DNA of 64,000 nt, taken from the NCBI GenBank assembly GCA_944384905.1, contig CALWVE010000024.1, forward strand, positions 11,415 through 75,414. Direction: 5' to 3'. The stretch comes from an uncultured Clostridia bacterium (GTDB lineage: Bacteria > Bacillota > Clostridia > Oscillospirales > Acutalibacteraceae). Of this stretch, positions 2,028-59,230 are shown piece by piece. The notes below the pieces were generated by a model. It was not told the origin of the DNA. It searched no databases and saw only the letters and a list, made by a program, of their open reading frames with translations. Position 1 is the stretch's first letter; each line of letters opens with the position of its first letter. The position numbers were made by a program, and so were the translations under genes.

Positions 2028-2076
2028 TCTATTACTCTTAAATTCGATCCACATATTTAAAAGGAGGAAATAATCC

Positions 2077-3612: not shown

Positions 3613-3644
3613 GCGTTCGATGGACTTTTTGCATACTGTTATGG

Positions 3645-3672
3645 CCGGGAGAGGTACTCCCTCTCCCGGTTT
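3645..3672 (+). terminator. Stem-loop between major pilin and sortase C (partial terminator/attenuator)
   Basis: A 10-bp perfect stem (ccgggagagg / cctctcccgg) with a 5-nt loop is followed by ttt. The short T-run suggests a leaky terminator that would give pilin-over-sortase expression. Confidence 0.45.
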
Positions 3673-3693
3673 CAGCGGTAAGGAGAGTCTTGT

Positions 3694-4542: not shown

Positions 4543-4549
4543 AGAAAGG

Positions 4550-21173: not shown

Positions 21174-21365
21174 CGTGCAAACATCCTTTCCGAAATGAAC
21201 CGCCGCGTCTTGCGGCCTTGTTTCGGGCAAGCCCGAAATCTCTCATTTTCCATTGCAAAAGCCCCTTATACAGCTGCATCCGGCGGCTTTTACGGGTATT
21301 ATCATACCATATTTTGCAGAAATACACAACTGTTCATGCGTATAAGATCAAAACAAATCCAATTT

Positions 21366-22404: not shown

Positions 22405-23667
22405 TTAGTCGTTCTTGATGAGGTCGTATTTGCCTTCGGCTGCGATCTGCTTGTTGAGTTCTTCAATGTACAGATCTTCGTCGAAGTCGTAGTCAACCTT
22501 CTTGCCCGTCCAGCCGGAGAGCAGGATTGCGTCGGCCAGAGCCACGCCATTGATGCCGTCGGTACCGGGAGCGATGAGCGGCGTGCCGTCGATCATATGC
22601 AGAGCAAAGTTTTCGAGAACGCCTGCATGCTGGCCGCCCCACTGAGACGGATGTTCGATAACCTGTTCATCATACAGGTCGTTGCCGCCGCCGGCGGTGT
22701 TGCCCATGGTCAGACGATGTACAGCAGCCATATCCATGCTGTTGCTGATTTCGTCTTCGGTCATCTTCAGCTTCTTCACAACTGCGCGCTTGGAGTTGTC
22801 AACAACAACCTTACCCTTGTCGCACAGGATCTCCAGACGGTCGGTACCCAGTACGTCGTGGGTGCAGGTTACGAACACGCCGGTAGCGCCGTTCGGATAC
22901 TCGAACATGGCGGTTACTTCGTTTTCTACGGCGATGTCGCGATGGCAGCCCATCTGGATGTTGGCATAAACCGTCTTCGGCTTGCCGCACAGCCACTGGA
23001 TGAGGTCGAGCTGGTGAGGAGCCTGGTTAACCAGAACGCCGCCGCCTTCAAGACCCCAGGTGGCGCGCCATTCGCTGGAGTTGTAGTAGGACTGCGGACG
23101 CCACCAGGTGGTGATGATCCAGTTGACGCGGCGGATTTCGCCCAGTTCGCCGCTGTCCATGATCGCCTTCAGGTCGCGGTACAGCGGGTTGTTGCGCTGG
23201 TTGAACATGATGGCGAACGGAACTTCCGGATGAGCCTTGGAGAACTCATTGAGCTGACGAACCTGCTTGGTGTAAACACCGGCGGGCTTTTCGCAGATAA
23301 CCGGCATGCCGCGCTTGATGGCTTCGATGCCCATCACAGGATGCAGGTAGTGGGGAACGGTGGTGATAACGGCGTCTACGTTGCCGCTTTCGATCATTTC
23401 GATGTAATCGGTATAGTAAGGAACAGCTTCGTATTTTTCTTTGATGGTGGCAGCCAGTTTATCAACTTCTTCTTCCGGTGTGCCCGCGAACTTCGCCATC
23501 ATTTTGGCGTTGCCGATGATGCGGCCGCAACCCGCCTCATAAGCCTCGCGGCTGATATCGCAAATAGCGCCCAGTTCCATATGCGGAACGAGACCCTGGA
23601 AGATCAAACCGGCGTACGTTGTACCCTGGTTGCCGATACCAATGATACCAAGTCTGATTTTTTTCAT
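22405..23667 (-). CDS. Gfo/Idh/MocA family NAD(P)-dependent oxidoreductase
   Basis: N-terminal Rossmann motif MKKIRLGIIGIGNQG and the EKP motif (VICEKPAG). It is 420 aa, longer than average for the family. Confidence 0.85.
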   Translation of the reverse strand: MKKIRLGIIGIGNQGTTYAGLIFQGLVPHMELGAICDISREAYEAGCGRIIGNAKMMAKFAGTPEEEVDKLAATIKEKYEAVPYYTDYIEMIESGNVDAVITTVPHYLHPVMGIEAIKRGMPVICEKPAGVYTKQVRQLNEFSKAHPEVPFAIMFNQRNNPLYRDLKAIMDSGELGEIRRVNWIITTWWRPQSYYNSSEWRATWGLEGGGVLVNQAPHQLDLIQWLCGKPKTVYANIQMGCHRDIAVENEVTAMFEYPNGATGVFVTCTHDVLGTDRLEILCDKGKVVVDNSKRAVVKKLKMTEDEISNSMDMAAVHRLTMGNTAGGGNDLYDEQVIEHPSQWGGQHAGVLENFALHMIDGTPLIAPGTDGINGVALADAILLSGWTGKKVDYDFDEDLYIEELNKQIAAEGKYDLIKND

Positions 23668-46126: not shown

Positions 46127-46347
46127 GCTAAACCTCCTGAAACATACGGGGCGCTTTTCTATATATAAAAGATGCGACGCGGGAAATTATTGTAGCACAG
46201 GCGAAAAGAAACTGTCAAACAGGAACCGTCGAAGAAAAAAATAAAAAATTTTTTAAAAAGATGAAAGGATACGCCGCCCTCATTCGTGTTGTATGTGAAA
46301 GGGAAACAAACCCGATAAAAATCAACCGATTTCAGGAGGAAACAACC

Positions 46348-46815
46348 ATGACGATGAAAGCTTTAGCCGTTTCGATGATTTTGTCTTTGCTCACCACAAG
46401 CGGTGCAGCAGCTTACGCGGTGCAGACGCAGGCTCCGGCCGAAGCGGCCGTTCAGCCCACAGCGGTAGAACAGACAGTCGTTTGTCCGAACGATGGCGTC
46501 CCGGCACTGGACGGCACCGGTTATCAGGGCGGCCGCAGCGATGAAGACGGCAACGGTAACGGCAACGGCGGCAATGGCGGCAATGGCGGCAACGGCGTAT
46601 GTGCCAACGGCGGTGTGTGCGTAAATGAAAACTGCCCGAACGGTGGTGTTCCGGCGCAGGATGGCACGGGCTACCAGGGTGGCCGTAACGATGAAAATGG
46701 TAACGGCAACGGAAACGGCGGCAATGGCGGCGTATGCGTAAATGAAAACTGCCCGAACGATGGTGTTACGGCACGCGACGGCACCGGTTATCGCGGAGGC
46801 CGCGGCGGTAAATAA
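46348..46815 (+). CDS. Small secreted Cys/Gly/Asn-rich protein with three C-P-N-x-G-V-x-A-x-D-G-T-G-Y-x-G-G-R repeats
   Basis: ATG 46348 sits behind caggagga. The signal peptide ends AAAYA. Three repeats are separated by (GN)n spacers and VCVNENC motifs. It is 9 nt upstream of an ECF sigma gene. Confidence 0.7.
   Translation: MTMKALAVSMILSLLTTSGAAAYAVQTQAPAEAAVQPTAVEQTVVCPNDGVPALDGTGYQGGRSDEDGNGNGNGGNGGNGGNGVCANGGVCVNENCPNGGVPAQDGTGYQGGRNDENGNGNGNGGNGGVCVNENCPNDGVTARDGTGYRGGRGGK
46483..46812 (+). repeat. In-frame tandem coding repeats (~115-120 nt unit, three copies) with GGCAAYGGC micro-repeats
   Basis: gt(g/a)tgcgtaaatgaaaactgcccgaacg occurs twice nearly identically, and the ggcaacggc/ggcaatggc tracts are repeated. 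Confidence 0.8.
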
Positions 46816-46839
46816 GAAACAAAGATGAGGGAGACGTCC

Positions 46840-47325
46840 ATGCGCAGCGAATGGGAAACAGACCGCGCGATCGAGCAATATGCCGATACGGTACGGAAAA
46901 TTTGTATGCTGCATCTGAAAAATGAAGCCGATACCGAGGATATTTTTCAGACGGTGTTTTTAAAATATGCGATGTACCCCGGCTCGTTTGCCGACAGCGA
47001 GCACGAAAAAGCCTGGCTGATCCGTGTAACGGTGAACGCCTGTAAGGATTTTCTCAAAAGCTTTTTCCGCCGCAATACGGTTCCGATTGAAGAAATTCAG
47101 GAATCGCTGGTGTCGCCGCTGCCGCAGGAGCAAAGCGAAGTGCTTGAAGCCGTGCTTTCCCTGCCCGATAAATACAAGGATGTGATTTATCTGTATTTTT
47201 ACGAGGGCTATTCCGCCGTGGAAATCGGACGTCTGCTTAAGAAAAATGTCAACACAATCTATACATTGCTTTCTCGTGCAAAAGCGATTCTTAAAGAGAA
47301 ACTGGGAGGTGAGGAATTTGCGTAA
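46840..47325 (+). CDS. ECF-type RNA polymerase sigma factor (sigma-70 family, regions 2 and 4)
   Basis: Region 2 (EDIFQTVFLKY...AWLIRVTVNACKDFLK) and region 4 HTH (VIYLYFYEGYSAVEIGRLLKKNVNTIYTLLSRAK). ATG 46840 has the better RBS (gagggag). ATG 46825 is an in-frame alternative. Confidence 0.85.
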   Translation: MRSEWETDRAIEQYADTVRKICMLHLKNEADTEDIFQTVFLKYAMYPGSFADSEHEKAWLIRVTVNACKDFLKSFFRRNTVPIEEIQESLVSPLPQEQSEVLEAVLSLPDKYKDVIYLYFYEGYSAVEIGRLLKKNVNTIYTLLSRAKAILKEKLGGEEFA

Positions 47326-48202
47326 CCGGATTCAAACCGCATTCGATTCCGTTCAGGCGTCGCCCGAACTGAAAAACAAAACCCGCGATTTTCTGGCTCA
47401 CGAGCGGCAGCGCCGTTCTGTGCGTCCGGTCCGGGCGCTGGTTCCCGCGTTGTGCAGTTTGCTGCTGTTGGTTTTGGGCGCTGTGGGCTGGGGCCTGTAT
47501 CAAACGCCTGTTGCGGCCATCAGCGTGGACATCAACCCCTCTCTGGAGCTCACGGTCAACCGTTTTGACCGGGTGATCGGCGTGAAGGGCTTTAACGAAG
47601 ACGGTGAAGCCGCCGCCGCGCAGGTAGACCTCATCAACATGCGCTATGACGAAGCTGTGGAAACGCTGCTTCAAAGCGAAGCCATTTCACCGTATCTTTC
47701 TGAAGATGCTTTTGTCAGCATTGCCGTGGCCTGTGATGAACAGGAAAAAGGCGAAGCCATGCGACAGCAGGTGCAGGCGGGTACCGTCGAATGCCCCGCG
47801 GAAGTTTCCTGCACGGCGGGGAACAGCGAGGACGTAGAACAGGCGCACGAAGCCGGGCTTTCCTTCGGCAAATATCGCGCGTTTGAAGAATTGCAGGCGC
47901 TGGATCCTTCCGTAACGGCCGAAGACGTGCAAGGTATGACCATGCGCGAAATCCGCGACCGGATCAACGAACTGCTGGAAGAAGCGGGTGAAGAGCCCTC
48001 CGGCCAGGGTCAAGGTCAGGGACAGGGTTCGGGCCAAGGTCAGCAGAGTCAGGGCACCGGGCAAGGCTCGGGTCAGGGCCAGCAAGGCCAGGGGAGCGGT
48101 CAAGGCTCCGGCCAGGGTTCCAAGGGAGAAGGCAATTCGAGCGGCAAAAATCAAGGCAGCCAGAACGGGGACGGCAACCAGTACGGCCGAAACCCCGGCT
48201 GA
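47318..48202 (+). CDS. Single-pass anti-sigma factor with RsgI-like juxtamembrane domain and Gln/Gly-rich disordered tail
   Basis: TTG 47318 (or GTG 47309) overlaps the sigma stop, behind gggaggtgagg. It has a short cytoplasmic N-terminus, one TM (LVPALCSLLLLVLGAVGWGLY), the extracytoplasmic SVDINPSLELTVNRFDRVIGVKGFNEDG, which resembles B. subtilis RsgI (TIDINPSVEMALN...LNDEG), and a (GQG/GSG)n tail. Confidence 0.7.
   Translation: MRNRIQTAFDSVQASPELKNKTRDFLAHERQRRSVRPVRALVPALCSLLLLVLGAVGWGLYQTPVAAISVDINPSLELTVNRFDRVIGVKGFNEDGEAAAAQVDLINMRYDEAVETLLQSEAISPYLSEDAFVSIAVACDEQEKGEAMRQQVQAGTVECPAEVSCTAGNSEDVEQAHEAGLSFGKYRAFEELQALDPSVTAEDVQGMTMREIRDRINELLEEAGEEPSGQGQGQGQGSGQGQQSQGTGQGSGQGQQGQGSGQGSGQGSKGEGNSSGKNQGSQNGDGNQYGRNPG
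47995..48199 (+). repeat. Low-complexity GGYCARGGY coding repeats (Gln/Gly/Ser tail of the anti-sigma factor)
   Basis: Translates to PSGQGQGQGQGSGQGQQSQGTGQGSGQGQQGQGSGQGSGQGSKGEGNSSGKNQGSQNGDGNQYG. Confidence 0.8.
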
Positions 48203-48203
48203 T

Positions 48204-48240
48204 AAAAAAGTCCGGAGCATTTCTGCTCCGGACTTAATTT
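48204..48240. terminator. Bidirectional terminator between the anti-sigma gene and the Dlt-like operon
   Basis: 12-bp stem aagtccggagca / tgctccggactt, flanked by aaaaaa and aattt. Confidence 0.75.
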
Positions 48241-48308: not shown

Positions 48309-49262
48309 TTAAGCGTTTTTGACAACGGATTCGTACCGGCTGAGTGAATCGTTCCATTTGGCGTAATCCGCATCGGGGCGGTGATCGGTTAAAAGGCCCG
48401 TTTCGGTAAGGTAATCGCTAAGAAAACGCGTGACTTTGGCGGCGCCGAAATGATTGAGATGGTCGCCTTTGTCTCGGGTGTCTTCTTCCCAATTGATTTT
48501 AAGCTGTTCGTTCATCAAGTTCAGATCGATGTATTCGCATCCAATTTGATCGGCCAGATTCTGAATGCCGTTGTGGCGTTCGTAGTTCCAGTTTACGGTG
48601 CTGGGTGTGCTGAGAAAAACGAGCTTTGCGCCGTTTTCATCGCAGAATTCTTTGATTTCTGCGATGTATTTGATATTCAGTTCCGGAATTTCTGCCTTAG
48701 TTTCCGTTTTTACCATGTGGTCTTTTTTTGTGCTGGCGAGAACCCGGGCGTTATATCGATAACCTTTATAGTCGTCTGTCCAGGTGAACTTGCTTTTTCC
48801 GGTAAAATCGTGCCATCCCAAGGATTTCCAGCGGTCGTGATATTGGAATACCGAAAAGTGATCGGCCAGCTTTGCAATCGCCGCGCTGCTGTCTGAAACC
48901 GGTCGATAAATCGCATTGGTTTCCAGAATCACAATTTTGGGTGATTGCTTTTCAAATGTGCGGTGCAGCAGAACCTGCGAATAATCTAAGCTTTGTGCGG
49001 GAGAACCGCAGACATAAGACGTATATCCCGTATCTTTCCATATTTGCAGCGGGATGATGGAAGAATATGACTCACTGTCACCCAGTACCAAAACATCAAT
49101 GGAATGCTCCTTTTCTCCCAGGATACCATTGGCCGATACTTCTTCCATGCCAAATTCAGACATGTTGTTTTTCGGCTGAAAGACAAAAGACGAGGCAGTA
49201 AGTAGTCCGATCAGTCCGATGATAAACACCAGACAACGGACAATTCTTTTTGCATAAATCAT
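48309..49262 (-). CDS. Membrane-anchored SGNH/GDSL-fold protein (DltD/AlgX-like role)
   Basis: N-terminal TM anchor, block I GDSES (VLVLGDSESY) and block V DHLNH (DKGDHLNHFG). Last gene of the Dlt-like operon. Confidence 0.75.
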   Translation of the reverse strand: MIYAKRIVRCLVFIIGLIGLLTASSFVFQPKNNMSEFGMEEVSANGILGEKEHSIDVLVLGDSESYSSIIPLQIWKDTGYTSYVCGSPAQSLDYSQVLLHRTFEKQSPKIVILETNAIYRPVSDSSAAIAKLADHFSVFQYHDRWKSLGWHDFTGKSKFTWTDDYKGYRYNARVLASTKKDHMVKTETKAEIPELNIKYIAEIKEFCDENGAKLVFLSTPSTVNWNYERHNGIQNLADQIGCEYIDLNLMNEQLKINWEEDTRDKGDHLNHFGAAKVTRFLSDYLTETGLLTDHRPDADYAKWNDSLSRYESVVKNA

Positions 49263-49274
49263 GGCGAATCCTCC

Positions 49275-50876
49275 TTAAAAACCCGCATAGATGGGATCGA
49301 CCGGGATATAGCCTTTCCCATAGGCGCCGAACACCACGATTAACAGGATCAGCGCATAGTATGCGGCAAAGCGGACGACCATATTTTGTTTGGAAATCTG
49401 TTTGCGGACCTGAATATGATGTTCCTGTAAAACGCTGATGATAAACACGATACTCAGGGCAACCAAAACGATCAAACAATCGTAGCGATCGATTCCAAAC
49501 GTAAAAATGGAGCGGTCGTAAACGGTTTGAAGCGAAAAATCAGTGAAGATTTTTTGGAACATGGTAAGCCCGGCACGCAGCCCGTTCGCGCGGAAGAAAA
49601 GTTCGCCGATACATACAAGTATGCTGGTGCGGATCATCTGCATGCAGCGGTAGAAAAAGTTATTGCGGTTGATATGCAGCTTTTTGGTGATCCAGATAAA
49701 CAGCGGGTCGGCAATGTTTCCGAGCAGAATCCATGTGAAGTGATACAGACCGAAAAAGATGTAGTTCCAGCCTGCGCCATGCCACAGGCCGTTGCAGATC
49801 CATACGCAAAACAGCGCGATTGCGCCGGAAATCAGCGGTCCAAAGTGATTCCCCAGGCGTTTGCGGGCGTGGGAAGTCAGCTTTTTAAGTGGCTTCGACA
49901 TGGAGAGCGGATAGAAAATGTAATCTTTAAACCACGTTCCCAGGGTAATGTGCCAGCGTTTCCAGAATTCCGAGATGCTTTTGGAAAAGAACGGACGTTC
50001 AAAATTTTCGGGCATCTTGATTCCGAAAATCTGTCCGGTGCCGATCACGATATCCATCGTTCCCGAAAAATCCATATAGAGCTGAATGGTGTAGCAGACG
50101 GCCGATACGGCGATTACGAAACCGTCGTAGTTTGGATAATCGGAAAAAACTGTTTTAATCAGCAGATTCAGCCGGTCGGCGACGACCATTTTTTTCATCA
50201 TGCCGAAAAGGATACGCTGAGAGCCAAACATGAAGTTTTCGTAGCGGATCCGAGGCGCTTCCCAAAGCTGCTCGGCCGTATCGGAATAGCGGCAGATCGG
50301 GCCTTCCATGATCTGCGGGAAAAAGCTCATGTAAAGCGCCAGGCGTATCAAATTGCGGTCAGCCTGAATTTTACGGCGGTACACATCGAAAATATACGAG
50401 ACAGCCTGTAAGGTATAGAAAGAAATGCCGATCGGCAGAACAAAAGAGGGAATCTCAAACGTAACCGGAATATGAAGCGCGCCGAAGAGCGTGTTGATGT
50501 TTTCCGCAAAAAACGGCGTGTACTTCAAAACCAGCAAAATTCCGATATGTATTATCACCCCAAAGGCGACGACACCGCGCTGCTGCTTGAGGTATTGGGC
50601 TTTGATGGCTTTGCGTTCTTCTTTGGGTGCGGTTTCCAACAGGCGGTCACAGCCCTGCTGGATGCTCGACAGCCACACGCCGATGTGGTGAATCGAAAAA
50701 ACGGAAAACACCAAATAGGCGATCAGCTTTCCGCTGATCGCCCAGAAGAACAGGCAGCTTGAGGACAAGAGTACCCATCTGCGGAGTTTTTGCGGCAATA
50801 TGGCATACAGTCCCACGGATACCGGCAAAAAAAGCAGCAGGTATCCGAGAGAAAAGTAGGAATTGATCGCGAACAT
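49275..50876 (-). CDS. MBOAT family membrane O-acyl/aminoacyl-transferase (DltB/AlgI-like)
   Basis: Hallmark motifs FWKRWHITLGTWFKDYIFYPL and NGLWHGAGWNYIFFGLYH, with multi-pass TM topology. Confidence 0.9.
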   Translation of the reverse strand: MFAINSYFSLGYLLLFLPVSVGLYAILPQKLRRWVLLSSSCLFFWAISGKLIAYLVFSVFSIHHIGVWLSSIQQGCDRLLETAPKEERKAIKAQYLKQQRGVVAFGVIIHIGILLVLKYTPFFAENINTLFGALHIPVTFEIPSFVLPIGISFYTLQAVSYIFDVYRRKIQADRNLIRLALYMSFFPQIMEGPICRYSDTAEQLWEAPRIRYENFMFGSQRILFGMMKKMVVADRLNLLIKTVFSDYPNYDGFVIAVSAVCYTIQLYMDFSGTMDIVIGTGQIFGIKMPENFERPFFSKSISEFWKRWHITLGTWFKDYIFYPLSMSKPLKKLTSHARKRLGNHFGPLISGAIALFCVWICNGLWHGAGWNYIFFGLYHFTWILLGNIADPLFIWITKKLHINRNNFFYRCMQMIRTSILVCIGELFFRANGLRAGLTMFQKIFTDFSLQTVYDRSIFTFGIDRYDCLIVLVALSIVFIISVLQEHHIQVRKQISKQNMVVRFAAYYALILLIVVFGAYGKGYIPVDPIYAGF

Positions 50877-50877
50877 A

Positions 50878-51108
50878 TCAGGATTCCTCCTGCAGGCGGG
50901 TGATCAGTGTCCAGAGGTTTTCCGCGGAATTGAAATTATCCGGAACGATATCGACGGTGGGAATGGTGATGTCGAATTCTTCTTCGAGTTCGGCAACCAG
51001 AGAAATAATCGAGAGGGAATCAAGATAGTGCCCGTCGATCAGATCGGTGCAGGTGGTGTAATCGATTTCCGGCTGGATTTCTTCCAAAATTTCAATCAGT
51101 CTTTCCAT
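50878..51108 (-). CDS. Carrier protein (DltC/ACP-like, phosphopantetheine attachment LDSLS)
   Basis: 76 aa, acidic, with the serine attachment motif GHYLDSLSIISLV. Its stop is 1 nt from the MBOAT start. Confidence 0.85.
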   Translation of the reverse strand: MERLIEILEEIQPEIDYTTCTDLIDGHYLDSLSIISLVAELEEEFDITIPTVDIVPDNFNSAENLWTLITRLQEES

Positions 51109-51132
51109 GGTGTTTCTCCTTTTTGTTTTGTT

Positions 51133-52326
51133 TTATTTTTGGGGACAATTGAAAGGGTTTGTTTGTGTATGCGGCCGAACCGTAACGATTTGCCCGTCAT
51201 CCTGCAAGAGGACGACTTCCGGCAGATCGCGGCTCAGAAAGAGCGAAATGCCTTCCGTTGCGCAGTAAGCGCCTGTGTTTTGAAAAAGCAAAACATCTCC
51301 GATCTGTAAATTGCGCAGCGGCAGTTTTTTGACCAGAATATCGTTGACCGTACACAACGAGCCGCAGATATTCCATTCTTCTTCGGAAGCCTGCACATCG
51401 GAATCCCGATTTTGATCGCTTAATACTTGGATATAAGGGTGTTTCATCGCCATAAACTGGCCGTAATAAGCCAGCTGATGAATGCCGCCGTCGACAATCG
51501 CGTAGTTTTCCGCGTGGTTGTGTTTGGCGTCGACAACCTGGGTAAGGTAGCTGCCGCAGCTGGCAGCAATGCTGCGTCCAAGCTCAAGCGCGATGGTTCC
51601 TTTAAATTTCAGCTCATGAAGCAGGCCGGAAAATTCCCGCAGAAAAACGGCTTCGTCAAAAGAATCTCCCTGAAAATACGAAACAGGGAAGCCCGGGCCG
51701 AATTCAAGTTCTTTGGCTTGATAGCCGAAGCGTTCTTCCAGCGACTCGATAAACTGTTCCAACGTTTCGAGTTCCCGTTTGAGCCGTTTGACCGAGGTTT
51801 TCTGCGTACCGGAAAAATACTGGATGCCGCGGATATCGAGAAAAGACGAGCCGGCATAATCCCGGATGATGCGTTCAATCTCGCTTTCGTCAAAACCGAA
51901 CTGGTTGCCGCTGGTGAGGCGCAACAAAACGGAGATTTGTTTTTGATTTTCCGCCGCGGCGCGATAGAGTGTGTCAAACTGCGATACGGATTCTACCGTA
52001 TAAATGCCGATCGGCGTTTCTTCGGCGATCAGCTGCCGTATCTGTCCGGGCTCTTTGTAAACGCCCGAAAGCACGAATTTTTCGTAAGGTAGCTGTAATC
52101 TTTGGCAGATGGCGAGTTCTCCCGGGGAACAGATTTCCAATCGATCTACCAGTCGGACAACCTCTTCCAGAATAAACGTGTTGGCTTTTACGGCATAGCA
52201 GAGCTTGACATGAGCCGGCAGCGATTCGCGCAGATATTGAATGCGGCGCCGCAGTTCGGGCAGATCATACACGTACAGCGGCGTGCTTTTTTGCTGTAAA
52301 AGCATTTGAGCGGCCATGACGTTCAT
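51133..52326 (-). CDS. Fold-type III PLP-dependent decarboxylase-like enzyme (Orn/DAP/Arg decarboxylase family 2)
   Basis: PLP-lysine motif KLCYAVKANTF, C-terminal beta-barrel motifs WNICGSLCTVNDIL and NTGAY, and size 397 aa. The start overlaps the ligase stop (ATGA). Confidence 0.8.
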   Translation of the reverse strand: MNVMAAQMLLQQKSTPLYVYDLPELRRRIQYLRESLPAHVKLCYAVKANTFILEEVVRLVDRLEICSPGELAICQRLQLPYEKFVLSGVYKEPGQIRQLIAEETPIGIYTVESVSQFDTLYRAAAENQKQISVLLRLTSGNQFGFDESEIERIIRDYAGSSFLDIRGIQYFSGTQKTSVKRLKRELETLEQFIESLEERFGYQAKELEFGPGFPVSYFQGDSFDEAVFLREFSGLLHELKFKGTIALELGRSIAASCGSYLTQVVDAKHNHAENYAIVDGGIHQLAYYGQFMAMKHPYIQVLSDQNRDSDVQASEEEWNICGSLCTVNDILVKKLPLRNLQIGDVLLFQNTGAYCATEGISLFLSRDLPEVVLLQDDGQIVTVRPHTQTNPFNCPQK

Positions 52327-53834
52327 TTTTGCATCCTCCTTTCCAGCAGGACTTTTCGGTCTATTTTGCCGTTTTTGGTCAGCGGAAACGCCGGTATATT
52401 ATAGAGCGCTCCCGGCACCATATAAACGGGCAGCAGATTTCTCAGCCGGCTGTGCAGATCTTTTCGATCTGTTTCGCCGATATAAAAGCCGTAAAGCTTC
52501 GATTTTTGTTCGTCGAATACGCAGCAGCAGCGTTCAACGCCCGGCAGGCCGGAAATGGCCCGTTCAATTTCTTCCAGCTCAATGCGATGCCCCATGTGTT
52601 TGATCTGAAAATCTTTCCGGCCGCAGAAAAGCAGCTCGCCGGTTTCGGTGTATTTCCCAAGATCGCCGGTTCGGTAAATCGTTTCCGGATAGGCTGTGTT
52701 GAGCGGATTTTGCACAAAAGCCTTGGCTGTTTGTTCGGGGGCGCGATAATATCCGAGCGCGAGAGCTACTCCGCGTACGCAGATTTCGCCCACCGAACCC
52801 GGAACGCGGATGCGCCGGTTGTCGGAGTCCAGCAGAAAAACATCTTTGTTTGGGAAGGGGCATCCGATGGGAATCCCCTGGCTGTAATCACGTCTGTTTT
52901 CCAGAATGTGATAGGTACAGTTGCAGGTGATTTCGGTCGGGCCGTAAAGATTGACAAACTGTGCGTTCGGCAGATGCTCCATCCAGGTGCGCAGATGTTT
53001 GAGCGGCATCACTTCGCCGCTGAAAAGAATTTTGCACACGCTTTCGGGGCAGCGATAGTCAAGTCCGTGGAATGTGCTGATTAAGCAGAGCGCAGAAACG
53101 GCCCAGATCATCGTGGTGATTTTGTGATCGCATAACCAATCGAGCAGTTCTTTGGGGCGGGAGAAAAGCGCCTTGGGAATCACAGAAAGCGTGGCGCCTG
53201 TTTTGAGTGCGGAATAAATATCTTTTACGGAAACATCGAAATCGAATGGTGCCTGGTTGCCGATGATGTCGTTTTCCTGAATCTCGAAAAGCTCGGTGAA
53301 CGGATCGATAAACGCCAGAACCGATCGGTGGCTGACCAAAACGCCTTTGGGCACGCCGGTTGAACCGGATGTAAAGATGGCGTACAATGGGTCTGTATCG
53401 ATCATGCGCGAGCGGATGGCTGCGAGCTTTTCCGGTTTAAGCGGAGCTGTTTGAAGCTCTTCCACAAGCAGAACCGAAGCGGAAGGAAACAGCTCACGCG
53501 CGGTATTTTCATGTTCCCGGTCGGTGAGAATAAACCGGGAATTTAAAACCCCGTGCATCTGCCTGAGTCTTGCGGCGGGCAGATCGGGATTGAACATCGT
53601 ATAAAAGCCGCCGGCGTAGACAATCCCTAAAAAAGCGGTGAGTGAAGGAATCCCCTTTTCCATATACACAGCGACGGGATCGCCGATTTCTATTTCATCG
53701 GCGAGTGAAGACCCGACGCGCATACAGAATTCTTGCAAGTGGAGGAAACTGCAAGTCCCGTATTGATCTTCCACAGCTGCTTTTTGCGGAAAAGCAGCCG
53801 CGCTTTTTTCGAGATATTCCAATACATTCTTCAT
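52323..53834 (-). CDS. Amino-acid adenylating enzyme / carrier-protein ligase (DltA-like, ANL superfamily)
   Basis: A-domain core motifs FTSGSTGVPKG, NQAPFDFDVSVKDIY, FSGEVMP, NLYGPTEIT, YRTGDLG, DFQIKHMGHRIELEEIE and NGKIDRK. RBS aaaaaggag. Confidence 0.9.
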   Translation of the reverse strand: MKNVLEYLEKSAAAFPQKAAVEDQYGTCSFLHLQEFCMRVGSSLADEIEIGDPVAVYMEKGIPSLTAFLGIVYAGGFYTMFNPDLPAARLRQMHGVLNSRFILTDREHENTARELFPSASVLLVEELQTAPLKPEKLAAIRSRMIDTDPLYAIFTSGSTGVPKGVLVSHRSVLAFIDPFTELFEIQENDIIGNQAPFDFDVSVKDIYSALKTGATLSVIPKALFSRPKELLDWLCDHKITTMIWAVSALCLISTFHGLDYRCPESVCKILFSGEVMPLKHLRTWMEHLPNAQFVNLYGPTEITCNCTYHILENRRDYSQGIPIGCPFPNKDVFLLDSDNRRIRVPGSVGEICVRGVALALGYYRAPEQTAKAFVQNPLNTAYPETIYRTGDLGKYTETGELLFCGRKDFQIKHMGHRIELEEIERAISGLPGVERCCCVFDEQKSKLYGFYIGETDRKDLHSRLRNLLPVYMVPGALYNIPAFPLTKNGKIDRKVLLERRMQK

Positions 53835-54002
53835 AAAAATCTCCTTTTTCCGGAAGCCCGATGACCTCCTGCCGCGCCGACGGCTTTTGTTACGATAATT
53901 GAATTATAAAACGCCAAGCTTTATACAAGCTTCACCTAACCTTAATGTTTCTAAAGGAAAATCCGGAATGCAGAAAAACGACATAAACGTAAAAGTTTCG
54001 AT

Positions 54003-54192: not shown

Positions 54193-54232
54193 AAAAATTA
54201 AATCCGGAGCCCAAAACGAGCCCCGGATTTTT
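54193..54232 (-). terminator. Rho-independent terminator after the histidine kinase gene
   Basis: Minus-strand stem aaatccgg.gc / gc.ccggattt followed by aattttt. Confidence 0.65.
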
Positions 54233-54238
54233 GTATGC

Positions 54239-55852
54239 TTATAAATTGTTTTCGATCGGAATCGATAGGCAAAATTCTGTGTGGTAAGGCGCATGGGGAG
54301 GAAGAATCAGCGAGAGTTTCCCGTGATGCATTTCAACAATTCTTTGCGCAATGGAAAGCCCCAGCCCGGTTCCTTTTCCCGTTGTGCGCGCAATATTGCC
54401 CGTAACAAACGGCTGGAACAATGTATGGGCAATCTCTTCCGGAATACCGACGCCGTCATCCGCGAATGTCATGGACACATGATTTTCACGTTCCCGGATG
54501 GAGACAAAAATGGTTGTGCCCTGTGCGTTGTATTTCATGGCGTTGTTCAACAAATTTTCAAGCAAACGGCGCATGAGTTTCCTGTCCAGCGGGAGCAGAA
54601 CGGGCTTGTCATCGATATCGACATGAAGCTCAAATCCGCCGTCGGTGAGTTCCGTATATTTTTCGGCGAAGAAGCTTTTCACAAATTCACTGAAATTCGT
54701 CGTTTCCAAACGAAGCGGATAATCGGGATGTTCGATTTGCGTGAACATAAACAGGTCGTTCACCATATCGGTGGCTTGTCTTGATTTATTGAAGATAGCG
54801 TCCATGTAAGCGCTCTGCTTTTCGGGCGGAACCCGATTTTCCGAAAGCGCTTTTGCGTACCCCTGAATGACGGTAAGCGGCGTTTTCAGATCATGAGAGA
54901 CGTCGGCAATCAGTTTCTGCCTTTCCTGATACAGGTTTTCTTTTTCTTCGCGGGTTTGTTCCAGTTTGCTCAGCAGATTTTTGAAATTCCGCACAACCTC
55001 ATGAAATTCGGAAGGCACATCGTCAGGGGAAATTTCTGCGGTTTTTCCTTTTTCATACGAGACGATGGTTCGGTTGAGCGGGCTGATGCGATGCTTTATT
55101 TTGTAAAAGAATAAGACGGTAAACAAAATAATTGCGAGGAAAACACAAAAAATGCCAATAAACCAGATTCTTCTTACCGATTGGAGAATGGCGTTATATT
55201 GTTCCTGCGTCATGCTGGACGACAAAAAAGCAAGAATTCGCTTTTCGCCATATTCGTTGTAGTAAACGTACTTTTCCAACATGCTGTTGGTGCTGGAAAT
55301 GCCGCTGAGCAGTTCAAACTCCCGCTGGGTAAGAGAAGTACGTTCGGGAAACAATCCGCCTTCCAGAATTCTGTAGTTTTCATCCAAAACACAGTAATCC
55401 ACGGTTTGTGGAACCATTGTTTTGCCGTCCATATCCAAATCTAAATCGTAAACGTTTAAGTAGACATAATATTGGACAAGCCCATCCGGCGTATCGTTTT
55501 GAAATACTTCGAAAAACTGGTCTGAGCCGTAGTCGTTGATCATGTCGAGATCCTGAAAGAATACTTTTTCTCCAATCGTCCGGTTGCTGGCATATTGAAT
55601 TTTACCTTTTTCATCAAAGATAATCATAGCGGAATTCTTGGAATTATTTGCGGGAATTCGCGCGTAATCCTCTTCCACCAGCTCGTCTTCATAGGCCAGT
55701 AAATCATCCATGGTAAACACGGATTCATTCATTTTCTGTCCGGCTAAGCGATTGAAAATCGAATAGATCAATACGATCATCAGGGTAAAACACAAGAAAT
55801 ATACGGCACAGGAGACAATCAGACTTTGTTTGGCTCGTTTAATTTGCTTCAA
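54239..55852 (-). CDS. Sensor histidine kinase with ~200-aa extracytoplasmic domain
   Basis: TM1 (SLIVSCAVYFLCFTLMIVLIY), a periplasm-like domain, TM2 (IWFIGIFCVFLAIILFTVLFFY), H-box ADVSHDLKTPLTVIQGY, N-box LLNNAMKYN, and G-boxes DDGVGIP and GTGLGLSIAQ. Confidence 0.9.
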   Translation of the reverse strand: MKQIKRAKQSLIVSCAVYFLCFTLMIVLIYSIFNRLAGQKMNESVFTMDDLLAYEDELVEEDYARIPANNSKNSAMIIFDEKGKIQYASNRTIGEKVFFQDLDMINDYGSDQFFEVFQNDTPDGLVQYYVYLNVYDLDLDMDGKTMVPQTVDYCVLDENYRILEGGLFPERTSLTQREFELLSGISSTNSMLEKYVYYNEYGEKRILAFLSSSMTQEQYNAILQSVRRIWFIGIFCVFLAIILFTVLFFYKIKHRISPLNRTIVSYEKGKTAEISPDDVPSEFHEVVRNFKNLLSKLEQTREEKENLYQERQKLIADVSHDLKTPLTVIQGYAKALSENRVPPEKQSAYMDAIFNKSRQATDMVNDLFMFTQIEHPDYPLRLETTNFSEFVKSFFAEKYTELTDGGFELHVDIDDKPVLLPLDRKLMRRLLENLLNNAMKYNAQGTTIFVSIRERENHVSMTFADDGVGIPEEIAHTLFQPFVTGNIARTTGKGTGLGLSIAQRIVEMHHGKLSLILPPHAPYHTEFCLSIPIENNL

Positions 55853-56552
55853 TTTTATACCCCAATCCTCTTATAGTTTTGATGTATCGCGGATTCGAAG
55901 GATCGTCCTCTATTTTGGAACGGATATTTGAAATGTGAACCATCATGGTGTTGTCGTCGCTCTCATAAAGCTCTCCGCCGATGCAGGCATACAGCTGCGC
56001 TTTTGTGTAAACGCGGCCTGGGGATTGCATCAGCTTGACGACAATCTTCAGCTCGGTAGGGGTCAGCGGAATCACACGTCCTCTTTTGCGCAAAACAAAT
56101 TTGGGCAGATCCATCTGCAACTCGCCCACCGTAAGGGAAGTTTCGGCAGCCGCAGCTTTATGAGCGGAATCGTTGCCGCCCAATTCATAATAACGCCGCA
56201 GCGCTGATTTGACATAGGCCACGACTTCCAACGGATTAAACGGCTTTGTGAGATAGGCATCCGCGCCCAGATTCAGCCCCAATATTTTGTCGGTATCCAT
56301 TTCCTTGGCAGATAAAATGATAACCGGGAAATTATATTTCTCGCGAATACGCTTTAACACATCATACCCGTTCATTTCCGGCATCATAATATCCAGAATG
56401 GCCATATCTACTTTGGAGGATTCAATTTTTTCAAGCGCTTGAAGGCCATTTTCCGCCGTCAAAACGCTGTATCCTTCTCCGGTTAAATAAAGTGAAAGCA
56501 GTTCTACGATATCCGCGTCGTCCTCTGCGATCAGAATATGCTGATTCGGCAT
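55839..56552 (-). CDS. OmpR-family response regulator
   Basis: Start at MPNQHILIAEDD (ATG 56552-56550), behind agaggtgaggg. It has a receiver domain (DMAILDIMMP) and a winged helix (LTPTELKIVVKLM...VHISNIRSKIE...IKTIRGLGY). It overlaps the kinase start by 14 nt. Confidence 0.9.
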   Translation of the reverse strand: MPNQHILIAEDDADIVELLSLYLTGEGYSVLTAENGLQALEKIESSKVDMAILDIMMPEMNGYDVLKRIREKYNFPVIILSAKEMDTDKILGLNLGADAYLTKPFNPLEVVAYVKSALRRYYELGGNDSAHKAAAAETSLTVGELQMDLPKFVLRKRGRVIPLTPTELKIVVKLMQSPGRVYTKAQLYACIGGELYESDDNTMMVHISNIRSKIEDDPSNPRYIKTIRGLGYKIEAN

Positions 56553-56683
56553 TTCCCTCACCTCTTTCAGTTATACGCATTGTATAAGCCGCTTTTTCGG
56601 CTTATTTCACCCTTATTGTATCCGGAAGACGAATGACCGTCAAGGGAAAATCACCCTCTTGAACAGCACACTGGTAATTGATG

Positions 56684-56743: not shown

Positions 56744-57292
56744 TTAAAACGAAAACGGGCTTGCTGCCGGGATTATACGGCTTTGGGCATTTTTCATGCG
56801 GCAGAAAGACCAGTTGAGTGTAGAAGCCTGCACGGCATCGGCCAAAGGCCATAAATTTTTCAGCAGGCGAACTTCTACATTCCGGCGAAACAGTTCTTCA
56901 AATAGATCGCGGCAAGGCGTGACGGAAAGCGGAACCTGCGTCTTTTCCGAAACATAATAGCCAGCGATGGGATCTTGAAGTACAAAATCTGCCGAATCAA
57001 AGGCATACAGATAGAGCGTTGTATGTTTCATGGTTTCAAACCAGGCGTTTTCGATGGCGACAACATGAGGAACATCGGGGTTTGAAAAGAAGCGTATGCG
57101 GTCAGCTTCGGTTGTTTGTTCGCCCGCATGATAGGTGACCCGCGGACAATTCCGAGGTGTGAGAAAATTGGGGAGTCGCTTTTCATCCAGCGCCCAGACC
57201 AGCGGGATTTCCGGGTTTAAGTCCGTGCGTGTAGGTGTGCGCGGATGGAAGACCTGGATATTGGCTTCTTCGCTTACATGAAAAAGAATCAT
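56744..57292 (-). CDS. Conserved hypothetical protein (DUF6886-like)
   Basis: Start at MILFHVSEE. This N-terminal pattern matches my recollection of that uncharacterised family. No TM segments and no catalytic motif recognised. Confidence 0.55.
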   Translation of the reverse strand: MILFHVSEEANIQVFHPRTPTRTDLNPEIPLVWALDEKRLPNFLTPRNCPRVTYHAGEQTTEADRIRFFSNPDVPHVVAIENAWFETMKHTTLYLYAFDSADFVLQDPIAGYYVSEKTQVPLSVTPCRDLFEELFRRNVEVRLLKNLWPLADAVQASTLNWSFCRMKNAQSRIIPAASPFSF

Positions 57293-57415
57293 ATCTATCA
57301 CCCCGTTAGCCGTTTGATCACATCTTATTCTAAACATAGGGGATTGTCAAGATACAGAAATATGCCCTCAAAAAGGAAAAAGCCCCGGAAAGAATCCGGG
57401 GCTTTCGTAAATGGC

Positions 57416-57760
57416 TTATTCTGCCGGAGGAACTTGGAGTTTGCCGCAATTGGTGCAGATATCTTCGGCGGAAGCTTCGTTGCAGTTGACGAAGGCATCG
57501 CCCACCGTTGCAGTCGCGCCGAATTCAACCGGAACGGCTACGCAGATATCCTGAGAGATCGTGAAAACACACGAGCCGTTTCTTTCGCCGTCGCAGGTGA
57601 TTTTTCCCGGCGTAACAACAGGAGCGCCGCAGCATTTTGTGAAAGTGGCGCCTGTTTTGGCAAAAGGACTGACGGTTACCGGTACACAAATGGAGGCGGA
57701 CTGATAGCCGACAGTGGGACAAGTCTGATCCTCCAGAAGAGCCATATTATTATCCATCAT
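57416..57760 (-). CDS. Small Cys-rich hypothetical protein (11 Cys in 114 aa, internally duplicated ICV.VPV motif)
   Basis: It is the only long ORF in this interval. Motifs are ICVPVTVSPFAKTGATFTKCCGAPVVTPG and ICVAVPVEFGATATVGDAFVNC. The RBS is weak (gggat) and there is no signal peptide. Confidence 0.5.
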   Translation of the reverse strand: MMDNNMALLEDQTCPTVGYQSASICVPVTVSPFAKTGATFTKCCGAPVVTPGKITCDGERNGSCVFTISQDICVAVPVEFGATATVGDAFVNCNEASAEDICTNCGKLQVPPAE

Positions 57761-57843: not shown

Positions 57844-59130
57844 TTATTTTCGCTGACCCCAAAACGCGACGATGGTAACCAACGCCATGACTAGCGTTGT
57901 CAAAATGGTTGAAGCCCAAATCAGCAAATCGCCGCCCGAAAGGATCTGTACAATAGACAAAACCGATGCCAGAATGGAAACAATACCGAAAACAGTAATG
58001 ATATTGATAACGGTTTCGCTGCGGGCGCGTTCGTTTTCCTGCTGATGTTCAGCCAGAATATTGACCTTGGTGCTGATATCCTGAATGGCGGTGTTGATAT
58101 CGTTTACTTCGAGCAGATAGGCATAAATCTGCTTCACATTATGCCAGCGCGACAGGTTGGCCGGCGTTACCGTACCGAATGCCTGGAACCGAAGCATCAG
58201 TTTTTTCAGCTCTTTGAGCTGTTTGAGTTGTTCTTTGTCCATGTTGGTGATCAGTTCGGTAAAGCGAAGGCAGGTATATTTTTCATAAAGGGATAAAAGT
58301 ACAACCGGCAGCCCATCTTCGGCCTGAGCGTTTCTTTGAGCCTCAAAATCCTGATCGGCTATAACATAAGAGATTGTTTGGGAACAAACGCAGCAGCCCC
58401 AGCGATAGGAATTGTACACCTGGTGTTTGACCGCATAAACATACCGAATATCTTCTTCTGACAAGTCTTCGATCGGAGCATCTGCCGGCATCATTTTGTG
58501 AAGGTTGAAAGTGATTTTCTGCATCTCTTCCAGCGTGTTGAAGCGTTCCGGCACGACGGCAAACGTATAGGCGTAGGCGTCCAGCAGGAAAGAGGATTCT
58601 CCGTCAAAAAACTTTTGCAGGCCAAGTTCCCCGCAGAAAGCGCCCAGCCAGGTTTCTACAGAAAACGGATGGTCTTTTCCTGTTTCGTCCGTCCAGAAAA
58701 ACACGGCGGTACTGTGCGCAGAACCGGGATTGCAGATAGCCTGAAGTGCCTCCATATGCGCAAAGGAGAGATTCAGGCATAAAAATGCGACCTGCGTTTG
58801 GAAGATATACAGATACGATTGATGCAAAGCAAAATCGTATTTGTCCTCTCCCGTCGAAACGCGGAAAGACTGAGAACAGGCGCTTACGGCTTTCCCGCAA
58901 AGCGGCGCGACAAGGGGTTCGCATTCTACGGTAAAGCAGGCGCCGACGGCTGCTTCGTTCGAGCGGTCAAGCATGGCCTTGATATTTTCGTTGAGGTCCA
59001 TGGTTGTCAAAGGATGATATTCGGCTATTTGTTCAAGCTTTTCCCGAGAAAGCGAATCCGGATCATATTTTAAAGGAATGACCAGGAAACAGCCATATTG
59101 CGGGGCATTTTTTTCGTGGTCGCACGACAT
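57844..59130 (-). CDS. Membrane protein with CorA-like architecture (soluble N-domain, long helix, two C-terminal TMs) lacking the GMN motif
   Basis: Start at MSCDHEK (ATG 59130-59128). The C-terminus is ETVINIITVFGIVSILASVLSIVQILSGGDLLIWASTILTTLVMALVTIVAFWGQRK, that is TM1, a short loop, TM2 and a basic tail. Where CorA has GMN, the loop reads ILSGGD. Confidence 0.55.
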   Translation of the reverse strand: MSCDHEKNAPQYGCFLVIPLKYDPDSLSREKLEQIAEYHPLTTMDLNENIKAMLDRSNEAAVGACFTVECEPLVAPLCGKAVSACSQSFRVSTGEDKYDFALHQSYLYIFQTQVAFLCLNLSFAHMEALQAICNPGSAHSTAVFFWTDETGKDHPFSVETWLGAFCGELGLQKFFDGESSFLLDAYAYTFAVVPERFNTLEEMQKITFNLHKMMPADAPIEDLSEEDIRYVYAVKHQVYNSYRWGCCVCSQTISYVIADQDFEAQRNAQAEDGLPVVLLSLYEKYTCLRFTELITNMDKEQLKQLKELKKLMLRFQAFGTVTPANLSRWHNVKQIYAYLLEVNDINTAIQDISTKVNILAEHQQENERARSETVINIITVFGIVSILASVLSIVQILSGGDLLIWASTILTTLVMALVTIVAFWGQRK

Positions 59131-59230
59131 TTTTAATCCCTTTCTTCCATAGTTTTTTATTTTTATTCTATCAGAAAGCAGGCATTTTGCCAAGAATATT
59201 TACGGCAATTTCAAGTGTTAAAATATTATA

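Follow-up and report, generated by a model that had tools for sequence, protein, structure and literature searches.

A conserved five-gene cassette of gut Clostridia that may couple carrier-tethered decarboxylation to aminoacylation of the cell surface

Why would an operon that resembles the machinery for D-alanylation of the bacterial surface carry an amino-acid decarboxylase gene in its midst? Dlt-dependent D-alanylation is the textbook means by which Gram-positive bacteria tune the charge of their surface, autolysis, the binding of cations, and resistance to host-defence peptides, and it is a drug target. The question is raised by a 64,000-nucleotide stretch of DNA from an uncultured Clostridia bacterium of the Acutalibacteraceae (assembly GCA_944384905.1, contig CALWVE010000024.1; the whole stretch is called the window below), where five closely packed minus-strand genes encode a ligase, a pyridoxal phosphate (PLP) decarboxylase, a carrier protein, an O-acyltransferase of the membrane-bound kind (MBOAT), and an SGNH-fold protein. 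A preliminary description of this DNA had proposed a non-canonical, decarboxylase-dependent envelope aminoacylation whose transferred residue is probably not D-alanine, and the analysis reported here supports that overall thrust. On balance, we favor a mechanism in which an amino acid is loaded onto the carrier, decarboxylated while attached to it, and relayed to an envelope polymer. A fuller version of the proposal is offered tentatively: gut Clostridia, and sometimes streptococci, would place a hitherto undescribed omega-aminoacyl ester (beta-alanyl, gamma-aminobutyryl, or lysyl) on a surface polymer by way of the first carrier-dependent MBOAT with a built-in tyrosine shuttle, under induction by a dedicated envelope-sensing two-component system. 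The five genes and the motif on which much of the argument turns are as follows.

52323..53834, minus strand: amino-acid adenylating ligase, stand-alone, 503 amino acids (aa)
51133..52326, minus strand: fold-type-III PLP decarboxylase, BtrK/SbnH-like, 397 aa
50878..51108, minus strand: carrier protein, 76 aa, PP-binding
49275..50876, minus strand: MBOAT acyltransferase, 533 aa, Pfam MBOAT
49278..49295, minus strand: C-terminal hexapeptide PIYAGF, the fused tyrosine acyl-shuttle motif with Tyr530 (motif as defined in PMC12148441)
48309..49262, minus strand: predicted membrane-anchored extracytoplasmic SGNH-fold transferase, 317 aa (AlphaFold2 and Foldseek)

Conservation of the five-gene cassette

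The coordinates of the five open reading frames (ORFs) proved identical to those first described, every motif quoted from them was found in the translations, and the junctions were as had been noted: an ATGA stop/start overlap joins the ligase and decarboxylase genes, followed by spacers of 24, 1, and 12 nt, the single nucleotide lying between the end of the carrier gene and the start of the MBOAT gene. Each of the five start codons is preceded by a Shine-Dalgarno sequence of the GGAG(G) type. The exact window proteins are present in NCBI, where they are unnamed, and no second copy of any cassette gene was found in the window.

We gathered related loci by scanning one genome per species with the decarboxylase as the sole query, which yielded 35 loci, and compared these by tblastn with all five proteins and by ORF clustering. 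All five genes stood in the window order in 27 of the 35 loci and in a rearranged order in another two (L019 and L033); contig ends interrupt the cassette in three (L012, L021, and L035), and one or two members are missing in three (L023, L030, and L025). The hosts comprise Oscillospiraceae (Faecousia, Heritagella, Onthovicinus), Lachnospiraceae, Ruminococcus, Mageeibacillus, [Eubacterium] hominis, and one isolate of Streptococcus suis. Across the 35 loci, the flanks are unrelated between lineages, with a two-component system as the sole recurring neighbor. Because the order is kept while the flanks vary, the cassette behaves as a self-contained module of which the decarboxylase is a core part, a grouping of genes that is far beyond chance. 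The earlier argument that the decarboxylase is an integral member of the pathway is thus borne out by five-gene synteny across families, and the opposing scenario of a chance insertion fails, since the decarboxylase is kept in the operon across relatives.

The enzymes and the proposed pathway

Profile searches placed the ligase among the AMP-binding enzymes (AMP-binding, 8.9e-63; AMP-binding_C was also matched), and it passed the model for amino-acid adenylation domains (TIGR01733, 335.9 bits against a cut-off of 317.4) while remaining below the cut-offs of both DltA equivalog models (TIGR01734, 272.6/559.85; NF003417, 279/476). The scaffold is nevertheless DltA-like: when two short fragments of the ligase (~68 aa) were used as queries, the best matches in the PDB were DltA enzymes, including for the segment with the A4 motif, and HMMER aligned DltA NQAPFSFDLSVMDIY to ligase NQAPFDFDVSVKDIY and DltA TFLFC269GEVLP...MNTYGPTEATVAVT to ligase KILFSGEVMP...VNLYGPTEITCNCT. 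We mapped the ten specificity positions via the conserved A4, A5, and A10 motifs, with a numbering that we take to follow the GrsA code, and obtained the code D-V-K-S-L-S-L-C-N-K. Six of the nine comparable pocket positions (236, 239, 301, 322, 330, and 331) differ from Bacillus cereus DltA; among these, a DltA Met is replaced by Lys at position 239, and Cys269 of DltA, presumably the residue that sets its stereoselectivity for D-alanine, is replaced by Ser at position 301. The expectation that the ligase is not a D-alanine-type DltA thus holds, with the scaffold retained and the pocket changed.

The pocket also carries information on what the substrate may be. Its code is invariant in 34 homologs, save that position 299 can be L, M, or I and that position 322 is V instead of L in one case, and since overall identity in this set is only 50 to 75%, such near-invariance argues for a single substrate under strong selection. 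Asp235 and Lys517 are retained, and the substrate should therefore be an amino acid. A basic residue at position 239 is typical of adenylation domains for acidic amino acids, such as those for Glu (DAKDLGVVDK) and the side-chain-activating domains for beta-methylaspartate and gamma-Glu of microcystin synthetase. By analogy, Lys239 suggests an acidic substrate whose second carboxylate is still present at loading; as this lysine would make no sense if that carboxylate had already been lost, loading would precede decarboxylation. The remaining pocket residues (S, L, S, L, C, N) include no acidic residue that could hold a distal amine.

The loaded substrate would be handed to the 76-aa carrier, which matches the PP-binding domain (1.2e-5) and in which the phosphopantetheine site, Ser31 of the LDSLS motif, is invariant in 33 homologs. 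Judged by its scores against the DltC models, which lie below cut-off (NF003464, 32.9/68; TIGR01688, 17.1/52.35), the carrier is best classed as a generic PP-binding protein and not as a DltC equivalog.

The decarboxylase matched Orn_DAP_Arg_deC and Orn_Arg_deC_N (both ~1e-16) and, in addition, Ala_racemase_N (1.1e-10). Invariant in its family are the PLP-binding Lys47 (CYAVKAN), E248-G250-R251 (ExGR), Cys325 (CGSLC), and G352-A353-Y354 (GAY). In a single-sequence search, the nearest solved proteins were SbnH (6KNH; PMC7139808) and BtrK, the latter at ~23% identity. A search of the PDB with the family profile ranked SbnH (155.1 bits) and BtrK (153.9) before the nearest diaminopimelate decarboxylase (148.9), and in Foldseek the model was matched best by BtrK (7RU7, TM 0.86), with decarboxylases taking all 50 of the 50 best matches. 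BtrK, which the preliminary description had invoked as a precedent, is accordingly among the closest solved relatives and the first structural match. Both of these relatives decarboxylate amino acids conjugated through the side chain, in SbnH through a citryl amide and in BtrK as a thioester of a carrier protein.

Several features separate this enzyme from the diaminopimelate (DAP) decarboxylase LysA. The lysA model TIGR01048 gave 171.7 bits against a cut-off of 297.9, and in an alignment with Escherichia coli LysA, RPAMY is replaced by YYGQF and CESGD by CTVND. We take the RPAMY and CESGD residues of LysA to clamp the distal carboxylate and ammonium of DAP, with the Glu contacting the distal amino group. 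Because the score is below cut-off and the DAP-binding residues are replaced, the enzyme is not a housekeeping LysA. It shares instead an LCT form with BtrK (LCTPED) and SbnH (LCTPKD). The place of the RPAMY segment is occupied by a loop, residues 287-297 (YYGQFMAMKHP), that is almost invariant in the family (Y287, G289, Q290, M292, M294, P297); speculatively, it may be a recognition element for carrier or substrate that becomes ordered only on carrier binding.

Alanine racemase was tried as an identity for the same protein and rejected on the basis of its model (TIGR00492, 16.4 bits against a cut-off of 168), and no racemase appeared among 42 PDB profile hits (E <= 1e-10) or the best 50 Foldseek matches. 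NCBI names the homologs P0034, P0051, P0081, and P0106 (56-59% identity) 'alanine racemase'; the Ala_racemase_N match has probably led to a systematic misannotation.

Together, these residues suggest how the first half of the pathway may run. The ligase would adenylate a dicarboxylic amino acid, most likely L-aspartate, and thioesterify it through its side-chain carboxyl to the phosphopantetheine on Ser31 of the carrier. Aspartate joined in this way is favored because the alpha-amino acid end must be free for a PLP alpha-decarboxylase to act. The decarboxylase would then, in analogy to BtrK and VinO/FlvO, strip the free alpha-carboxyl on the carrier, leaving an omega-aminoacyl-S-carrier. The beta-alanyl form is the favored product, with gamma-aminobutyryl or lysyl as alternatives; taken by itself, the beta-alanyl assignment is doubtful. 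It is placed before a gamma-aminobutyryl group because gamma-aminobutyryl thioesters cyclise and no protecting enzyme is present. In butirosin biosynthesis, a gamma-glutamyl protecting group is used, according to work cited within PMC11284099.

An alternative order of events would have the decarboxylase act on a free amino acid to feed the ligase (Asp to beta-alanine, Glu to gamma-aminobutyrate, or DAP to lysine), or would make the protein a racemase and thus the source of a D-amino acid. Free substrates are indeed used by most enzymes of this fold, and the Ala_racemase_N match, together with the 'alanine racemase' names of several NCBI homologs, speaks for the racemase variant. We nevertheless consider this order improbable: the invariant Lys239 argues that the loaded substrate keeps its second carboxylate, the neighbors in sequence and structure are all decarboxylases with no racemase among them and 16 bits for the alr model, the closest relatives SbnH and BtrK take conjugated or tethered substrates, and translational coupling to the ligase gene is kept in close relatives.

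Carrier-bound decarboxylation could also proceed on meso- or LL-diaminopimelate, with one end on the carrier and the other decarboxylated. This would give a lysyl (possibly D-lysyl) carrier and an envelope lysylation that adds two positive charges per group, along the lines of the DAP-to-lysyl example in the preliminary description. The decarboxylase does fall within a DAP decarboxylase-related clade (171.7 bits with the lysA model, and DAP decarboxylases score nearly as BtrK does), loss of the Arg/Tyr carboxylate clamp of LysA is what one would expect if the distal carboxyl is a thioester, and Lys239 could bind the distal carboxylate. The organism, moreover, makes meso-DAP through Ddh, whose gene we confirmed at ~20196-21230 (TIGR01921, 436.8 bits); without a demonstrated connection to the operon, ddh is irrelevant as evidence for the pathway, for which it had been cited. 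A 420-aa ORF near ddh (22405-23667), considered as a housekeeping lysA, turned out to be a Gfo/Idh-type oxidoreductase. DAP is disfavored because the pocket offers the distal group a cation but not an anion, in that the ligase lacks an acidic partner for the distal ammonium, and because the Glu of the LysA CESGD motif is lost, being Thr as in BtrK and SbnH, whose substrates have no such amine. With RPxxY gone as well and the LCT form in place, and with direct loading of lysine offering a simpler route to the same product, we judge the DAP version unlikely.

For the favored sequence of loading and then decarboxylating on the carrier, the second half of the pathway rests on the architecture of the MBOAT. 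The protein matches Pfam MBOAT (2.7e-12), and R307-W308-H309 is invariant in 32 homologs. The DltB model TIGR04091, by comparison, gave 159.5 against a cut-off of 375 and covered only residues 101-428 of 533; DltB itself has about 400 aa and carries no fused shuttle motif. Beyond the matched part lie additional hydrophobic segments at 465-483 and 499-526, that is, two extra transmembrane helices, and then a C terminus of the form ...FGAYGxGYxPVDP(I/M)YAxF, which in the window protein ends PVDPIYAGF. The Tyr at position -4 (Tyr530) and the terminal aromatic residue are conserved in 32 of 32 homologs. In most members the first position of the shuttle motif is Pro and not Phe, and the two most divergent proteins, from L019 and L033, end in the canonical FIYNQF and FVYMQF. 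In Dlt, the FxYxxF acyl shuttle lies on the microprotein DltX, whereas it is fused to the MBOAT on two extra C-terminal helices in PatA and AlgI; in the mechanism demonstrated for DltX and PatA, the shuttle Tyr is acylated and then passes the acyl group to an SGNH partner (PMC12148441). Apart from the MBOAT gene itself, no ORF of micro size or otherwise ending in Y..F, and hence no DltX, was found among the micro-ORFs on the operon strand between 48000 and 54400. The MBOAT had been called a functional equivalent of DltB, a label that does not survive these differences in architecture: two extra helices, a fused Tyr motif, and no DltX.

A relative from outside the cassette was seen in Subdoligranulum variabile (L037; OY725857.1, 6191-9434), where an MBOAT of 581 aa (32% identity; C terminus FIYFQF) is followed by an SGNH-like protein of 492 aa (24% identity), and within 8 kb there is neither a ligase nor a decarboxylase nor a carrier gene. 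This pair is probably an acyl-CoA-dependent relative. Being a lone pair, it suggests that the cassette arose when a PatA/AlgI-type relay was joined to a ligase-decarboxylase-carrier triad.

The last protein had no match in Pfam or NCBIfam, and its family profile had no sequence match in the PDB, the DltD structures included. Its identity became apparent from an AlphaFold2 model (built with 38 homologs; pLDDT 93.7), which shows an N-terminal transmembrane helix at residues 2-28 and an SGNH fold. Foldseek matched it to TesA (1.9e-6), to many SGNH esterases, and to DltD (6PFX, 1.5e-5, TMq 0.40). G61-D62-S63-E64, D264, D267, and H268 are invariant, and the positive-inside rule predicts an outward-facing SGNH domain behind the N-terminal anchor. 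The protein is thus a relative of DltD in fold only, and not a member of the DltD family. It defines a large orphan family that lacks a Pfam model: we counted 1,805 clusters at 90% identity, with homologs labelled 'hypothetical protein', and an exhaustive profile search of 1.84 billion representatives gave 8,653 hits at E <= 1e-3, of which 1,510 remained at E <= 1e-30. One 924-aa representative (P0304) contains the SGNH domain of this family with two matched stretches listed and may be a fusion or tandem form.

In the relay that this architecture points to, the carrier would pass its acyl group at the cytoplasmic face to the MBOAT, which would move it by way of His309 to Tyr530 at the outer face, where Ser63 of the SGNH protein would receive it and esterify a cell-surface polymer; teichoic acid, named for this role in the preliminary description, is one possible acceptor. 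The surface would thereby gain a primary amine, hence a positive charge, through an ester without the labile alpha-amino-ester chemistry of D-alanyl esters.

The acceptor might be of another kind, and the product a secreted small molecule or a membrane lipid or glycolipid bearing the aminoacyl group, if the MBOAT and SGNH proteins work on a lipid or soluble acceptor. In keeping with this, genes for teichoic acid or polysaccharide are absent from the flanks of the cassette in every lineage, and the SGNH protein comes from an orphan family. We think it about as improbable as the use of DAP, given the predicted outward orientation of the anchored SGNH domain and given that the characterised bacterial MBOAT-SGNH pairs with FxYxxF all acylate extracytoplasmic polymers (PMC12148441).

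That the locus is an ordinary dlt operon which happens to contain a lysA-like gene is very improbable: the models for DltA, DltB, and DltC do rank with the better NCBIfam matches, and DltA enzymes are the best PDB matches for the A4-motif segment of the ligase, but the Dlt equivalog scores fall far short of their cut-offs (272.6/559.85, 159.5/375, 17.1/52.35), Pfam gives no DltD match, the shuttle motif is fused to the MBOAT with no DltX, six of nine pocket positions including Cys269 are unlike B. cereus DltA, and the decarboxylase, itself below the lysA cut-off and devoid of the DAP-binding residues, is kept in the cassette across families. Of the view that four of the genes are equivalents of DltA, DltC, DltB, and DltD, the Dlt-like but non-canonical logic therefore stands; the one-to-one equivalence does not, as the Dlt models are below cut-off and the MBOAT and SGNH proteins are not of the DltB and DltD types.

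Several observations weigh against the load-decarboxylate-relay pathway as we propose it. The locus L025 has the ligase, decarboxylase, and carrier genes only, without those for the MBOAT and SGNH proteins, and L023 and L030 have no SGNH gene nearby, so that the module is not absolutely indivisible. Nor do the flanks of the 35 loci hold a recurrent accessory gene (racemase, mutase, or teichoic-acid gene) that would reveal the substrate or acceptor, and no acceptor-polymer genes (teichoic-acid or polysaccharide) were found in the window. For the decarboxylase, BtrK and SbnH are barely ahead of the nearest DAP decarboxylase, with near-identical Foldseek scores; close to the cofactor, GIQYFSGTQ replaces the GIHMHIGSG of LysA (Gln and Phe for His), and GPG is found where LysA has GGG. 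The loop 287-297 is poorly modelled, with a pLDDT of <50 at 289-291, the sole such part of the AlphaFold model. The reading of Lys239 is by analogy, and the ligase sequence is compatible with activation of either carboxyl, alpha or side-chain.

Transcription, neighboring genes, and locus variants

Upstream of the cassette, on the same strand, lies a two-component system, and the intervening and flanking DNA contains the elements of separate transcription units.

55839..56561, minus strand: response regulator, OmpR/VanR-family (Pfam Response_reg and Trans_reg_C)
54239..55852, minus strand: sensor histidine kinase with two transmembrane segments and a ~190-aa extracytoplasmic loop (HisKA and HATPase_c)
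54200..54230, minus strand: terminator-like hairpin, 14 bp stem, at the 3' end of the two-component-system unit
53916..53945, minus strand: candidate response-regulator site, three direct repeats TTAAGGTT, TGAAGCTT, TAAAGCTT with 11-bp phasing
53903..53908, minus strand: TATAAT -10 box of the operon promoter, read from the sequence
48208..48235, minus strand: terminator-like hairpin, 12 bp stem and T-run, at the operon 3' end

Since the hairpins flank them, one after the kinase gene and one after the SGNH gene, the five genes form a transcription unit of their own, and the two-component system, whose regulator and kinase genes overlap by 14 nt, is a separate unit upstream. The best NCBIfam match of the regulator is the VanR family (234 bits, below cut-off), and the kinase core is closest to VanS/WalK models, likewise with scores below their cut-offs. 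A response regulator is found upstream of the cassette also in L001-L003, L024, and L013 (59-85% identity) and, less closely conserved, in L010 and L011. The triple-repeat pattern occurs once in the window and in none of 100 shuffles, overlaps the -35 region, and is kept in the orthologous promoters of L001, L002, L003, and L024; within the TATAAT hexamer, T338, A339, and T343 are invariant columns of the promoter alignment. The repeat thus looks as expected for a binding site of an OmpR/VanR-family regulator, for which it is our candidate, and the operon is probably switched on by the adjacent VanRS-like system.

Other genes of the window lie around these units. Convergent with the cassette, and not kept beside it in other loci, are plus-strand genes at 46261-48202. 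The first (46261-46815) encodes a putative secreted protein of 184 aa without a Pfam match, in which three Cys/Gly-rich repeats of about CPN(D/G)GVPA.DGTGYQGGR are separated by NGNGNGGNGG runs. Directly downstream of it (46825-48202, plus strand) are the genes for an extracytoplasmic-function (ECF) sigma factor and for an RsgI-like anti-sigma factor whose C terminus is a long GQGQGSGQG low-complexity tail. On the other side, a 114-aa minus-strand ORF with 12 Cys (57416-57760) sits between a DUF6886 gene (56744-57337) and a 449-aa ORF without a Pfam match (57844-59193). At the start of the window (3-5491, plus strand) is a sortase-type pilus locus with a Cna_B-domain protein, a pilin backbone subunit (GramPos_pilinBB and SpaA domains), and, as possible sortases, two ORFs of ~280-310 aa; such a locus fits a Gram-positive, monoderm envelope.

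Some copies of the cassette show features of their own. In two Lachnospiraceae/Bacillota metagenome-assembled genomes (MAGs), an additional gene lies between the decarboxylase and MBOAT genes (L019, 9175-10215; L021, 8150-9163); its product, which has a membrane anchor, combines a transglutaminase-like core with a bacterial Ig-like domain. In L019, the gene for the carrier has moved downstream, to the opposite strand. In the S. suis isolate SSHP-D (L011; JAKTNI010000001.1, 4300-14368), the cassette and two-component system adjoin a P-type ATPase. The nearest nucleotide relative of this copy is an uncultured Clostridia MAG (L010), at 69% over 7.7 kb. The GC content of the S. suis copy, 0.30, is in line with that of the local flanks (0.32-0.33), with no sharp island boundary by GC within 17 kb, and S. 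suis has a GC content of about 41%. The 17-kb stretch (30-33% GC), being below the level of the species, may have been acquired, or the isolate may be atypical.

Carriage on mobile elements was considered as well. A full cassette with upstream response regulator and kinase occurs in a record from human faeces labelled 'UNVERIFIED: Bacteriophage sp.' (L038; MT836540.1, 7699-15261), which is most likely a piece of bacterial DNA from a virome preparation, and six more 'Bacteriophage sp.' faecal scaffolds match the SGNH protein. Since the 'phage' matches are such UNVERIFIED scaffolds, and the one examined is probably bacterial, we rejected phage carriage. No close plasmid copy of the cassette was found.

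Significance and comparison with known systems

A full-text search of the literature returned no earlier description of the cassette, an absence there that is no proof of absence overall. Each part belongs to a known superfamily and both half-mechanisms have precedent; it is their combination that is unreported. If the proposal is true, the cassette would provide a second surface aminoacylation, with a non-alpha amino ester of other lability and charge geometry, and hence, alongside D-alanylation, a chemically more stable means of remodelling surface charge and of resisting cationic antimicrobial peptides. The cassette is widespread in gut Firmicutes and occurs in the abundant, little-studied Oscillospiraceae and Lachnospiraceae of animal guts.

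The system with which the cassette shares most parts is Dlt (DltA, DltC, DltB, DltX, DltD). Both consist of a stand-alone ligase, a small carrier, an MBOAT, and a membrane-anchored SGNH-fold transferase; the scaffold of the cassette ligase is DltA-like (NQAPF.FD.SV.DIY; LF.GEV.P), and control by envelope stress is plausible for both. They differ in gene order and in that the cassette has a PLP decarboxylase inserted and translationally coupled. AlmE/AlmF/AlmG, which attach glycine to Vibrio lipid A, likewise use a DltA-like ligase and a carrier to deliver an aminoacyl group other than D-alanine to the envelope; there, the transferase is a lipid A acyltransferase and not an MBOAT-SGNH pair, and no decarboxylase takes part.

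For the first half of the proposed pathway, the precedents come from antibiotic biosynthesis. BtrK of the butirosin pathway (BtrI/BtrJ/BtrK) is a fold-type-III PLP decarboxylase acting on a carrier thioester formed through the side-chain carboxyl, as we propose here. Butirosin differs in that the ATP-grasp enzyme BtrJ, and not an ANL ligase, does the loading and that the product feeds an aminoglycoside. Closer in this respect, by their description, are VinN/VinL/VinO and FlvN/FlvL/FlvO, which make beta-amino-acid starter units of macrolactams and in which an ANL enzyme loads (3-methyl)aspartate on a stand-alone acyl carrier protein via the beta-carboxyl before PLP-dependent decarboxylation to a beta-aminoacyl group; loading is required for the latter, and a conserved Asp of the adenylation domain binds the beta-amino group (PMC11284099). 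This load-then-decarboxylate sequence is a precedent for the first two steps of the cassette. The Vin and Flv pathways, in contrast, belong to actinobacterial secondary metabolism and continue with alanyl-protection and a polyketide synthase, not with an MBOAT. Measured against carrier-tethered decarboxylation of the BtrK/VinO type, the cassette has a contiguous triad with intact catalytic residues, and a requirement for a tethered substrate would follow by analogy.

A ligase-decarboxylase pair also occurs at surface-polymer loci with exosortase A (EpsH1), where TIGR03098 and TIGR03099 describe an ANL ligase and a DAP decarboxylase-like PLP enzyme. These families are proteobacterial and tied to PEP-CTERM/exosortase. 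The preliminary description had pointed to such models, and they indeed exist and match the cassette proteins, but both scores are far under cut-off (TIGR03098, 188.6/592.35; TIGR03099, 174.6/478.45), and exosortase is absent here.

For the second half, the nearest systems are the acetyl-CoA-dependent O-acetyltransferases PatA/PatB, AlgI/AlgJ/AlgX, and WssH/WssI, which resemble the cassette in having an MBOAT with two extra C-terminal helices and a motif of the FxYxxF type and a separate SGNH partner. Like the PatAB/AlgIJ class, the cassette has an MBOAT with a catalytic His and a fused shuttle motif, next to an SGNH protein with Ser, His, and Asp. Members of this class use acyl-CoA, and the non-Dlt MBOAT/SGNH pathways are without a carrier protein (PMC12148441), whereas in ~29 loci the cassette has a carrier, ligase, and decarboxylase encoded upstream, from which an aminoacyl-carrier would appear to be the donor. 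With a fused-motif MBOAT gene adjoining a carrier gene, the cassette breaks the dichotomy between a carrier with DltB only and acyl-CoA with a fused motif. It would thereby unite carrier-tethered PLP decarboxylation, known only from antibiotic biosynthesis, with the acyl relay from MBOAT through Tyr to SGNH protein.

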